Below are positions 4,304-53,583 of a stretch of 64,000 nucleotides of DNA, piece by piece (position 1 is the first letter of the stretch; each line of letters opens with the position of its first letter). Made by a program: the position numbers and the translations under genes. The DNA lies in sequence record NC_028881.1. One strand, 5' to 3'. The notes beneath the pieces are model-generated. The model ran no database searches. It saw only the letters and a program-made list of their open reading frames with translations, and was not told the DNA's origin. Source of the DNA: Escherichia phage vb_EcoM-VR5.

Positions 4304-4774
4304 TTAAAGCATATTAAGTGCTTTAACTTTCGGGATTTGGATTTCTTCTTCGATGATGTATAATTTTACCCACGAAACTACGCGCATAAAATCACTATCA
4401 TATTCCACTGGCTCACCCAGCAATTCCTGGAGAGAACACATTAATTCAAATTCCTGGCCATTGTCACCATCAACCAGATTTTCAATACAAAGTGTTTTGT
4501 TAATGAAGTCAGGAGTTAATTGACCGGATTTTACACCAGATTCAATGTGTGCGATAATCAAGTGCTTAACCACATCCCATTCTGAATTACCACATTTATT
4601 GCGGTTATTACAATGAGAGCCTTGAAAAAGTTCCAGGATATATTTGTACTGTTGGATTTCTTGTTCTTCTACACCAAATATTGTCTGGGTTTTGTAGTTG
4701 TCACCGTCATTTTCCCAGGTTTCAATTTCAATCACATAACCTTTAGGGATGGTTTGTCCGAATTTAATTTCCAT
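4304..4774 (-). CDS. Hypothetical protein (156 aa)
   Basis: ORF packed between neighbours in an early operon. Confidence 0.5.
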   Translation of the reverse strand: MEIKFGQTIPKGYVIEIETWENDGDNYKTQTIFGVEEQEIQQYKYILELFQGSHCNNRNKCGNSEWDVVKHLIIAHIESGVKSGQLTPDFINKTLCIENLVDGDNGQEFELMCSLQELLGEPVEYDSDFMRVVSWVKLYIIEEEIQIPKVKALNML

Positions 4775-5702: not shown

Positions 5703-5975
5703 TTATTTTAGATAAATTGCATATTTTTTATAGCCAGCTGTCTCGTGGCGCAACCCTTTGTCATTAGCAAAGCGTTCAATATTATTAATTTGATTTTGGT
5801 CGAGTTCTGAAATATCAAATACAAAAAAGTTTCGCTTATTGCCTAAAGTTACATGATTAGTCAAATCGATGTTATAGAGATGATTTATATTATCAATCAT
5901 GGCCTTAACAGATTTGCTAATTTTTACTTCTTCATTAAGAATAGATTCAGCGATAAATTCTTGATAGGTTTTCAT
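5703..5975 (-). CDS. Internal-protein-like capsid-packaged protein with N-terminal capsid-targeting sequence MKTYQEFIAE
   Basis: ORF 5703..5987; internal Met gives MKTYQEFIAE, matching the T4 internal-protein capsid-targeting sequence that the prohead protease cleaves after Glu. Confidence 0.65.
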   Translation of the reverse strand: MKTYQEFIAESILNEEVKISKSVKAMIDNINHLYNIDLTNHVTLGNKRNFFVFDISELDQNQINNIERFANDKGLRHETAGYKKYAIYLK

Positions 5976-5976
5976 T

Positions 5977-6201
5977 TTATTCTGCACCAGCAGCTTTCAA
6001 AAGTTTTTTAAGATTGGCTGTGCCCTGAGCAGAAAATGTGACCTTGCCACCTTTTTCACTGATAGAACCAACCAATTTAGCAAGTTTATCATTAGGAATT
6101 TTTTTAAAATCAGCCAATGTTCCATCAAAGGTTTTTGAAACAAAAGGCAGTTCGTCTTCGTGTCTTTTAGCTTCGGTAATAAATTCTTGATAAGTTTTCA
6201 T
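5977..6201 (-). CDS. Internal-protein-like capsid-packaged protein with capsid-targeting sequence MKTYQEFITE
   Basis: 74 aa ORF starting MKTYQEFITE; AAGGA ribosome-binding site; driven by early promoter P3 with an overlapping late TATAAATA. Confidence 0.65.
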   Translation of the reverse strand: MKTYQEFITEAKRHEDELPFVSKTFDGTLADFKKIPNDKLAKLVGSISEKGGKVTFSAQGTANLKKLLKAAGAE

Positions 6202-6234: not shown

Positions 6235-6263
6235 ATAGTATCATATTTATAAATGCTGTAAAC
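6235..6263 (-). promoter_or_regulatory. Early promoter P3 (GTTTAC-N17-TACTAT) with a late TATAAATA embedded in the spacer (6244-6251)
   Basis: Reverse strand GTTTACAGCATTTATAAATATGATACTATAGACCTATCAAAAC. Confidence 0.55.
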
Positions 6264-9678: not shown

Positions 9679-9701
9679 TATAAATATTAATATTATTTAT
9701 A
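9679..9701. promoter_or_regulatory. Divergent late promoters: TATAAATA plus-strand 9679-9686 (gene 53) and minus-strand 9694-9701 (gene 4)
   Basis: Exact octamers about 27 nt upstream of each ATG. Confidence 0.65.
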
Positions 9702-47746: not shown

Positions 47747-47768
47747 GTATAAATATAACTATATTTAT
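47747..47768. promoter_or_regulatory. Divergent late promoters: TATAAATA plus-strand 47747-47754 (uvsW) and minus-strand 47761-47768 (inh/hoc)
   Basis: Exact octamers on both strands. Confidence 0.6.
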
Positions 47769-47783
47769 AACTGAGAATTAGAC

Positions 47784-50601: not shown

Positions 50602-50991
50602 TTAACCACTCTGTGAGAGCTGGATTCTAATTTGCTCTAATGTGTCCGGGTCGTCAACAATACTAAACTGGACTGTTACTATAATAGAGTTGTCATCATA
50701 AACAGGGGTTACACCTACAGCAAGAGCAGAAATTCTGGGTTCGAAGTTCCGCACGGCGGAAACTATATTACGCTTAATGGTATCTGTTATTAATGGGGTA
50801 ATATTCTCAAACAACTGATTGCTAATATCACATCCAAATTCAGGCATAAAAGGGCGAGAACCTTTACGAGTAGTAATAATGCCTAACAAACTATTTTTTA
50901 CTGCACGGGACCCTGTAGCTTTAGCGACGTCTCTATTCCAAGACGTCCTCATTTCGGGGTCCAAATCTGAATACATTTTATTGATATTCAT
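50602..50991 (-). CDS. 25: gp25 baseplate wedge protein
   Basis: 129 aa; N-terminal motif LLGIITTRKGSRPF.PEFGCD. Confidence 0.92.
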   Translation of the reverse strand: MNINKMYSDLDPEMRTSWNRDVAKATGSRAVKNSLLGIITTRKGSRPFMPEFGCDISNQLFENITPLITDTIKRNIVSAVRNFEPRISALAVGVTPVYDDNSIIVTVQFSIVDDPDTLEQIRIQLSQSG

Positions 50992-51614
50992 TACATCACC
51001 TTAAAGAACTCTTTAAGTCCCTCAATAACGTGGACGGTGTGCTCACCACATTCACAAGAAATAGGTATAGCCAAAATAGGCTTAGGGGCGACTAGAGCGT
51101 CATAAACTTCTTTTATATCTTTTTCTGTTATCACAGAATAAAGGTCATCTAGTTCCGCATCACTTAAATCGGAAAGAAGAAGCTTTTCGCCTGCAGAAGT
51201 TAAAATATAATCGATACACCCTGCGACCATCATAGCTCTATTTTTGTCTTCAAAGAGTTTAGGATATCTGAACACAATTTTAAAGTTACCAAAGTCCTTA
51301 ATAACATCAGGCTCTTTACCTAATGTAGCGCGAGTTAATGTCATAGGGACAACCTGTGAGCGACCACAACTACAAACCCACTCACGTTCTATATTCACTT
51401 CAGCTAATGAATGGGCCCACAGGTTTATCACCAGGAGATCAGATTCTTGCTTGTTTAAATCACGAGCATCTGTGCAATTCAAAATGAGTTCATTGATAAA
51501 GGACTCTATTCTGTCTTCTAATTTAGCTTGGAGCAAGTCCTTATACTCTCTGAGGGTAAATGCTCTGCATTTTATAGTCTTGTTTTTAATTTTTACATCA
51601 AAAGTATAATTCAT
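50991..51614 (-). CDS. 26: gp26 baseplate hub protein
   Basis: 207 aa; T4 order 25-26-51. Confidence 0.8.
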   Translation of the reverse strand: MNYTFDVKIKNKTIKCRAFTLREYKDLLQAKLEDRIESFINELILNCTDARDLNKQESDLLVINLWAHSLAEVNIEREWVCSCGRSQVVPMTLTRATLGKEPDVIKDFGNFKIVFRYPKLFEDKNRAMMVAGCIDYILTSAGEKLLLSDLSDAELDDLYSVITEKDIKEVYDALVAPKPILAIPISCECGEHTVHVIEGLKEFFKVM

Positions 51615-51632
51615 TGTCTTCTCCTTTAAGCT

Positions 51633-51644
51633 TATTTATAAATA
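51633..51644. promoter_or_regulatory. Palindromic bidirectional late promoter TATTTATAAATA (genes 26 and 51)
   Basis: Perfect 12-nt palindrome containing TATAAATA on both strands, placed between divergent genes. Confidence 0.6.
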
Positions 51645-51664
51645 CATCAATAAGAGGATACCTT

Positions 51665-52417
51665 ATGGCTAATATAGTACGTTGCGAAATGCCTGATGGA
51701 GTCCACCGATTTAAACCTTTTACCGTAGCTGATTATCGTGATTTTATTTTGATTCGAAATGATATGAATAACAAATCACCTGAAGAGCAAAAACAAATTT
51801 TAGATGAGTTACTAGAAGAATATTTCGGTGAGTACCCTATGTCATGGCGACCATACATGTTTATTGAACTGTATACGTCATCTCTCGGCAAGACCAAAAT
51901 TCCTATCCGTTACACTTGCAGTAAGTGTGAAAAAGATAGACAAGTTTTATTTAATTTGAAGCAGACTAAGTTAGATAACCCTACAATTGAAGTGGCTGGC
52001 TTGAAACTGACCTTCAAATTCCCTGAAATAGAATATCATGATAAATCTGAATTGATTTTGAATACCCTCCAAACCGTAGAAGATGAAAACGGGGTTTATA
52101 ATTGGGTAGACCTTTCTGAAGAGGACCAGTTAGCTGTAATAGATGCTATAGACTTATCTACTTTAGAGGATATAGTCAAACAAACCAGCCCTATTCATTT
52201 CGAACTCAAGTATGGATGCTGTAATCGTAGAACAATTACGTATACCGATATTTTAGAAGTGTTTAAGCTTATAGTCAATCCGGATGAGATATTTTTATTT
52301 TACCAAATAAACCATTTACTGGTAAAGAACAATTATTCGTTAGAAAGCATTATGCAGATGATTCCAATCGAACGCGGTATTGCTTTGTCTTTGGTTGAAA
52401 AGGACCTTAAGAAATGA
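51665..52417 (+). CDS. 51: gp51 baseplate hub assembly protein
   Basis: ORF 51614..52417; start assigned to [12 protein letters not shown] (250 aa) with AAGAGGA ribosome-binding site. Confidence 0.8.
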
Positions 52418-53583
52418 GTTCAAAAACTATGCAGCGTGAAGGCTTTCCTAATATTAGTATACGCCTTTACGAAGATTATGACGCCTGGTTAGAGCATCGT
52501 TTTGTTGAACTAGGCGCGACATTTACTACCCTAACAATGCGAGACGGGCTTTACGGTAGTAATGAAGGATTGCTCCAGTTTTATGATGCAAAAAACCTTC
52601 ATACCAAAATGGATGGTGAACAGATTATCCAAGTTTCCGTTAAGAACGCCAACTCAGAACGTACCCAATCAAGAATTTATGGAACCAAGCATTTTGCCGT
52701 AGGAGTGGATTCTAAGGGCGATAATATCATAACAATACAACTCGCCCCGATCCACTTTTTAGAAAATCTTAAATTCGGACGTATGTTTTTCCCTAGTGTT
52801 CAAGAAACATTAACTGAAATGATTGGGGTTATTTACCAGGACCGACCGCTTCTTGCCCCACCACTGAACGGGATAAACGTTTATGTTCCTAATGTCCCGT
52901 GGTGTGATTCTATGGATAGATATATGGAGTTTGTACGAGAAGTCGGTATGGCCGTTGAATCTGATAAATTTGTATTTGTTTGGGAAGATATAGATGGTAT
53001 TTCTATTATGGACTACGAATTTATGGTTAATCAAGAGCCGATCAATTTTGTAGTAGGTGAGCCTCGTTTAATAGGACAGTATGTCCAAGATATGGACACT
53101 CCTATTGCATTTGATTTTGAGTGGCTAACTAAAGCTAACCAACATAGCCGAAAACCATACGAAAACGCCACAGTATACGCCCATTCGTTCTTAGATAAAA
53201 ACGCTACACGAATTACTTTTGGAGACGGGCAAAACAGTATATTAGTTTCTCGTTCCGGTGGATATTCTGATTATACATATCGAAACGGATTTGAAGAAGC
53301 CGATAGATTAGTTACTATGGCCCAGTATGATGGATATGCTCATTGCAAGGTATACGGGAACTTTGAATTAACCCCAGGTGATAAGATTAATTTCTATGAC
53401 CCTAAAAACCAATTCCAGTACGATTTTTATGTAGACGAAGTTATTCATGAAGTGAGTAACAATACATCAATTACAAACCTTTATATGTTTACCAATGGTA
53501 AGCCTATTAAGATTGAAGAACCACCGAAGGTTAAAAATGAACTTAAAACTGATACTCCCGATCAAGAAAATAACGCTGGGTGA
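52414..53583 (+). CDS. 27: gp27 baseplate hub protein
   Basis: 389 aa; T4 order. Confidence 0.9.

Follow-up and report, generated by a model that had tools for sequence, protein, structure and literature searches.

The 50-bp gap between genes 26 and 51 of Escherichia phage vb_EcoM-VR5 very probably holds two gp55-dependent late promoters of the T4 type, which stand back to back and share 4 bp. Their boxes make up a 12-bp palindrome, TATTTATAAATA, at positions 51633-51644 of the analyzed stretch of DNA (64,000 nucleotides from record NC_028881.1, referred to here as the window). This palindrome is real, non-random, and almost certainly functional on both strands. An earlier note on this DNA had proposed that the site is a bidirectional late promoter. 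Our analysis supports this reading at the level of sequence, where all of its predictions hold: each strand carries a box, each of the two genes has a Shine-Dalgarno sequence, and the genes that diverge from the site are orthologs of late genes.

Two late promoter boxes within one palindrome

Direct reading of the sequence confirms that TATTTATAAATA is its own reverse complement, as had been claimed. It also contains, as stated, one TATAAATA per strand, and the two copies overlap by 4 nt: the plus-strand box occupies positions 51637-51644, the minus-strand box runs from 51640 to 51633, and positions 51637-51640 are common to both. In T4, a late promoter has no -35 element and consists of an 8-bp TATA box that precedes the start by approximately one helical turn (positions -13 to -6); the consensus box is TATAAATA, and its commonest variant has A at -13 (PMC1524935, PMC2988020). 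Applying this rule of position (PMC1524935) to the VR5 sequence, we predict two transcription starts. The plus-strand box (51637-51644, termed P51 here), which is 20 nt away from the ATG of gene 51, would direct a rightward start at the A at position 51650 and a 15-nt leader. The minus-strand box (51633-51640, termed P26), 18 nt away from the ATG of gene 26, would direct a leftward start at position 51627 (A on the minus strand) and a 13-nt leader. A distance of 23 bp separates the two predicted starts, such that the +1 position of each promoter falls at -23 of the other. For T4 (NC_000866.4), the same rule puts the predicted starts near 116467 on the plus strand and 116444 on the minus strand.

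Both genes are preceded by recognizable ribosome-binding signals. The Shine-Dalgarno sequence of gene 51, AAGAGGA, is found at 51652-51658 on the plus strand, and all relatives have an AGGAG/GAGG element at the equivalent place; that of gene 26, AAGGAG, is found at 51621-51626 on the minus strand (CTCCTT on the plus strand), and the CTCC element is kept in relatives. No candidate late box beyond the overlapping pair was detected in the 50-bp gap. The six nucleotides 3' of the boxes, CATCAA on the plus strand and AGCTTA on the minus strand, are A or T at four of six positions each; because the genome itself is 60% A+T, an AT-rich segment at this place discriminates little.

The exact 12-mer is present only once in the 64-kb window, where shuffles that preserve dinucleotide composition give an expectation of 0.04 copies (a copy appeared in 4 of 100 shuffles). 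Its constituent box is more frequent than expected: TATAAATA was found 19 times in the window versus 7.8 times expected, and none of 100 shuffles reached this count. Pairs of boxes on opposite strands no more than 30 bp apart number three in the window versus 0.067 expected, and three such pairs were not obtained in any of 20,000 random placements. A chance origin of the palindrome is ruled out by the shuffles and the random placement, together with the conservation described below. A role of the palindrome in RNA or as a cruciform was rejected by reasoning: it lies outside both predicted transcripts, and 12 bp without a loop would not form a stable hairpin.

Genes and transcription units flanking the palindrome

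The VR5 window represents a JS98/JS10-like Dhakavirus, not T4, and is most similar to vB_EcoM_ESCO10 (99.5%) and JS10/JS98 (approximately 95 to 96%). The palindrome had been placed between divergently transcribed baseplate hub genes, and this placement is correct: gene 26 on the minus strand and gene 51 on the plus strand are separated by 50 bp. Gene 26 (50991-51614, minus strand) encodes a baseplate hub protein of 207 amino acids and heads the leftward unit 26-25-uvsY, in which it is followed by gene 25, encoding a baseplate wedge subunit (50602-50991, minus strand; JS98 annotation). Gene 51 (51665-52417, plus strand) encodes a baseplate hub assembly protein of 250 amino acids and heads the rightward unit 51-27-28-29-48-54, in which it is followed by gene 27, encoding a baseplate hub subunit (52414-53583, plus strand; JS98 annotation). 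The identity of genes 26 and 51 is given by matches to baseplate hub families in PHROGs and to Pfam PF12322 as well as by the JS98 annotation, and the products are annotated as gp26 and gp51 in phages that are 94 to 99.5% identical.

On the JS98 map, the leftward series comprises genes 26, 25, and uvsY together with small open reading frames and ends where it converges with uvsW, and the rightward series comprises genes 51, 27, 28, 29, 48, and 54 and ends where it converges with alt.-3. On the plus strand between positions 51645 and 58600, neither an exact box nor the variant with A at -13 was found upstream of genes 27, 28, 29, 48, or 54. Because there is no further box up to 58600, the box at 51637 is perhaps the sole consensus late promoter for the approximately 6 kb of baseplate and tail tube genes from gene 51 to gene 54.

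The products of genes 26 and 51 are paralogs, as both match PF12322 and phrog_150. Their similarity is low in a BLASTP comparison (19% identity, E value of 1e-4) and clear in a profile-profile comparison with hhalign (99.3% probability, E value of 7e-21). Their membership in a common family is already recorded in databases. The divergent gene pair would therefore be an inverted duplication, with the promoter palindrome as its probable axis of symmetry.

Conservation of the palindrome among relatives

To compare the site across relatives, we chose 15 lineages with the divergent 26/51 order and used a single representative of each. The exact TATTTATAAATA was found in 12 of them: Dhakavirus, Tequatrovirus, Gaprivervirus, Karamvirus, Klebsiella phage Roth19, Gelderlandvirus, Mosigvirus, Yersinia phage MHG19, Marfavirus, Lasallevirus, Lazarusvirus, and Bragavirus. 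Two genera of Aeromonas phages have a 10-bp palindrome instead, TATTTAAATA, with a TAAATA core on both strands; in this version, 6 bp are common to both boxes, and position -12 is T. The remaining lineage, Krischvirus (RB49-like), has TATTTTATAAATA, which is rendered non-palindromic by one extra base and in which the plus-strand box is intact. Further to the left of TATTTTATAAATA, Krischvirus has a possible ACTAAATA box for gene 26.

The same three forms were seen in 50 loci from IMG/VR, which were retrieved by an alignment-based search with gp51 (a search with a single protein gave close relatives only): the exact 12-mer was present in 44, the 10-mer in 3, and the Krischvirus form in 3. When 33 distinct orthologous intergenic sequences, representing at least 12 genera, were anchored at the 12-mer, none of its 12 positions varied. 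On each side, the three adjacent positions carry approximately 0 bits of information, and conservation resumes at the two Shine-Dalgarno sequences. Two overlapping signals of 8 bp can thus hold 12 bp invariant over many genera. The window has 17 other TATAAATA boxes, and the four bases located 5' of these are freely variable; because the upstream bases of other boxes vary, we conclude that TATT at 51633-51636 is kept as a part of the opposite-strand box and not as an upstream element of the plus-strand promoter.

Gene order provides a further comparison. In Pseudotevenvirus, Slopekvirus, and Pectobacterium phage POP12, the genes lie in tandem on one strand in the order 54>51>26>25, and none of these three lineages has the palindrome or a late box upstream of gene 51. 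The P26/P51 pair is present as a unit where the gene order is divergent and is absent in the three tandem-order genera. The tandem and the T4-type arrangements are separated by an inversion or by the reverse event, and the relatives offer a natural experiment in which the palindrome occurs only where genes 26 and 51 diverge. In two of the three tandem-order lineages, represented by Banach (Pseudotevenvirus) and 05F (Slopekvirus), a GC-rich hairpin followed by a run of T is found between genes 54 and 51.

The T4 counterpart

The identical TATTTATAAATA is found in T4 between genes 26 and 51, which are likewise separated by 50 bp. The T4 and VR5 sites thus agree in the 12-mer itself, in the orthologous genes on both sides, in the length of the intergenic region, and in the 4-bp overlap of the boxes. 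However, the distance from the box to the start codon is 21 nt for gene 26 and 17 nt for gene 51 in T4, whereas it is 18 and 20 nt, respectively, in VR5, and the remaining intergenic flanks of the two phages are unrelated. Furthermore, T4 has an extra box with one mismatch, GATAAATA, on the minus strand 12 nt from the start codon of gene 26 (positions 4441-4448 of T4 locus L001), whereas VR5 has no counterpart of it.

Annotation of the site varies among records. The record MZ726795 (Tequatrovirus ASO78A) lists promoters, labeled as resembling the T4 late promoter, at 111876-111883 on the minus strand and at 111880-111887 on the plus strand, which is the same overlapping pair, and it also annotates the one-mismatch box nearer to gene 26 as a promoter. 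The record of Yersinia phage fPS-2 has the minus-strand box alone, and the T4 reference records NC_000866 and AF158101 contain no promoter feature at the 26/51 site. Because the same site is annotated in close relatives of T4, the VR5 site is ordinary and already known, and its significance goes little beyond correct annotation. In 1989, Scarlato, Storlazzi, Gargano, and Cascino reportedly mapped overlapping divergent promoters of the T4 base plate cluster by experiment (Virology 171:475), and we take the T4 promoters upstream of genes 26 and 51 to be that pair.

A time-resolved transcriptome and proteome of T4 assigns genes 25 and 26 on the minus strand and genes 51, 27, and 28 on the plus strand to the late class at both the RNA and the protein level (PMC9697503 supplements). 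As the T4 genes on either side are late, both strands beside the identical T4 palindrome therefore give late RNA. A preprint on differential RNA sequencing (dRNA-seq) of T4 reports 150 start sites, and a study by Gruidl et al. (1991), by its title, assigns genes 25, 26, and uvsY to common transcription units.

How the overlapping promoters may operate

In T4, the late box is recognized by gp55 bound to the host RNA polymerase, and transcription is activated by gp33 and the gp45 sliding clamp (PMC1524935, PMC2988020). The genes for gp55, gp45, and the clamp loader fall outside the 64-kb window and were checked in a relative, the Dhakavirus type phage JS98; JS98, which is approximately 95% identical to VR5 at the 26/51 locus, encodes gp55, gp45, and gp44/62. 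Late in infection, the host RNA polymerase together with gp55, gp33, and the gp45 clamp would bind TATAAATA without the help of a -35 element. Reading of the box on the plus strand would start transcription near 51650 and yield the 51-27-28-29-48-54 transcript, and reading on the minus strand would start transcription near 51627 and yield the 26-25-uvsY transcript. Because the palindrome is absent from both predicted transcripts, it would act as DNA alone.

In the activated complex, the gp45 clamp occupies the upstream end, where it extends the footprint by 13 bp, and gp33 is found near -35/-39; the orientation of the clamp, which is fixed by the nicked strand, sets the polarity of activation (PMC2988020). 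Two activated complexes would probably be mutually exclusive at the palindrome, because each of them would cover the box, the start, and the early transcribed region of the other. With gp33 near -35/-39 and a further 13 bp upstream covered by the clamp, each initiation event would therefore proceed one way only, and the orientation in which the clamp arrives would decide which. It is conceivable, if rather unlikely, that the invariance of the 12-mer reflects a two-way toggle, in which one polymerase-clamp complex is accommodated at a time, its direction is chosen by the gp45 clamp and the nicked strand, the polarity of replication apportions transcription between two operons headed by the paralogous genes 26 and 51, and the palindrome marks the axis of an old inverted duplication. 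The 26/51 site would explain how two essential baseplate operons are supplied with late promoters from a gap of only 50 bp, and it could serve as a convenient template for studying how clamp orientation selects the direction of transcription.

Alternative explanations of the palindrome

The palindrome might contain a single working box, the second being a by-product of a motif that is AT-rich and nearly self-complementary, in which case the gene on that side would be expressed from elsewhere. In favor of this reading, TATAAATA is AT-rich and partly self-complementary, another box in the window has ATT upstream of it by chance (6244-6255), and some of the listed T4 late promoter sites lack demonstrated activity in vivo, according to a review (PMC2988020). 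However, across at least 12 genera all 12 bases stay the same next to adjacent bases that vary, and the bases upstream of the other 17 boxes in the window are unconstrained. Expression from elsewhere also lacks a candidate source, as the 50-bp gap holds no alternative box and no consensus box is found further upstream on either strand, and in T4 the gene sets on both sides of the site are late (PMC9697503). We therefore consider a single working box very unlikely. Much the same can be said about the possibility that the palindrome is kept mainly as a binding site for a dimeric, DsbA-like protein that regulates or replaces the promoter function. Perfect dyad symmetry is a typical trait of operators, and T4 DsbA binds, with micromolar affinity, AT-rich sites that overlap two late promoters; however, DsbA is not essential and does not affect late transcription in vitro (PMC2988020). 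Each of the 12 positions belongs to one of the 8-bp boxes or to both, and conservation ends exactly at the box edges, so that a dimeric protein with its own operator need not be invoked. Moreover, the Aeromonas phages keep overlapping boxes within a different, 10-bp palindrome, which fits the logic of promoters and not that of a fixed operator, and thus we regard this explanation as highly improbable too.

A host sigma-70 promoter used early or in the middle of infection, with TATAAAT as its -10 element, is the least credible of the alternatives, and we give it virtually no weight. TATAAAT does resemble TATAAT; however, the T4 genes flanking the site are late (PMC9697503). A scan with the sigma-70 consensus also revealed no promoter-like site at 51600-51680, and the number of such sites in the region, 16, does not exceed the 18.7 seen in shuffles. 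In bacteria, the symmetry of the -10 element reportedly gives rise to bidirectional sigma-70 promoters (Warman et al. 2021, Nat Microbiol). The overlapping late promoters of VR5 resemble them in having an AT-rich, nearly self-complementary element of the -10 type that would be read on both strands to give closely spaced divergent starts. On the other hand, the VR5 site would use the phage factor gp55 and an 8-bp box without a -35 element, its starts are predicted to be 23 bp apart, and its activation would depend on a sliding clamp whose orientation sets the polarity (PMC2988020).

Face-to-face promoter pairs in the same window

The earlier note had also pointed to similar divergent pairs of boxes at two other places in the window. 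Non-overlapping pairs are indeed found there between divergent late genes, 4/53 and inh/uvsW, but their geometry is face-to-face rather than back-to-back; the position reported for the first pair, 9679-9701, is correct, whereas the second pair is located at 47748-47769 and not at 47747-47768. The 4/53 pair consists of a plus-strand box at 9679-9686 and a minus-strand box at 9694-9701 separated by a 7-bp spacer, with predicted starts at 9692 (plus) and 9688 (minus). The inh/uvsW pair consists of a plus-strand box at 47748-47755 and a minus-strand box at 47762-47769 separated by a 6-bp spacer, with predicted starts at 47761 (plus) and 47756 (minus). As the plus-strand box lies to the left of the minus-strand box in both cases, the predicted starts are crossed, and the two transcripts would overlap by 5 to 6 nt at their 5' ends. 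Like the 26/51 site, these pairs combine a consensus box on each strand within a span of 25 bp and are located between divergent late genes. However, each of their boxes would lie inside the leader transcribed from the other, whereas at 26/51 neither box would be transcribed. Because of this face-to-face placement and the crossing of the predicted transcripts, the similarity is only partial.

Both pairs keep this geometry in T4, with spacers that are again 7 bp at 4/53 (locus L075, 1850-1872) and 6 bp at inh/uvsW (locus L001, 22-43), and the T4 genes 4, 53, segE, and uvsW are likewise late by both RNA and protein (PMC9697503 supplements). The face-to-face pairs are therefore a different arrangement that is likewise conserved between VR5 and T4. 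The inh box of T4 reads AATAAATA.

A one-mismatch copy of the palindrome

A copy of the palindrome with one mismatch, TATTTATAAATG, is located at 6244-6255 and contains TATAAATA on the minus strand. It is found approximately 42 nt upstream of two adjacent small open reading frames on the minus strand (5977-6201 and 5703-5987), and the predicted products of both start with MKTYQEFI. This N terminus resembles the capsid-targeting leader of T4 internal proteins. In JS98, this stretch of approximately 650 bp carries no annotation.
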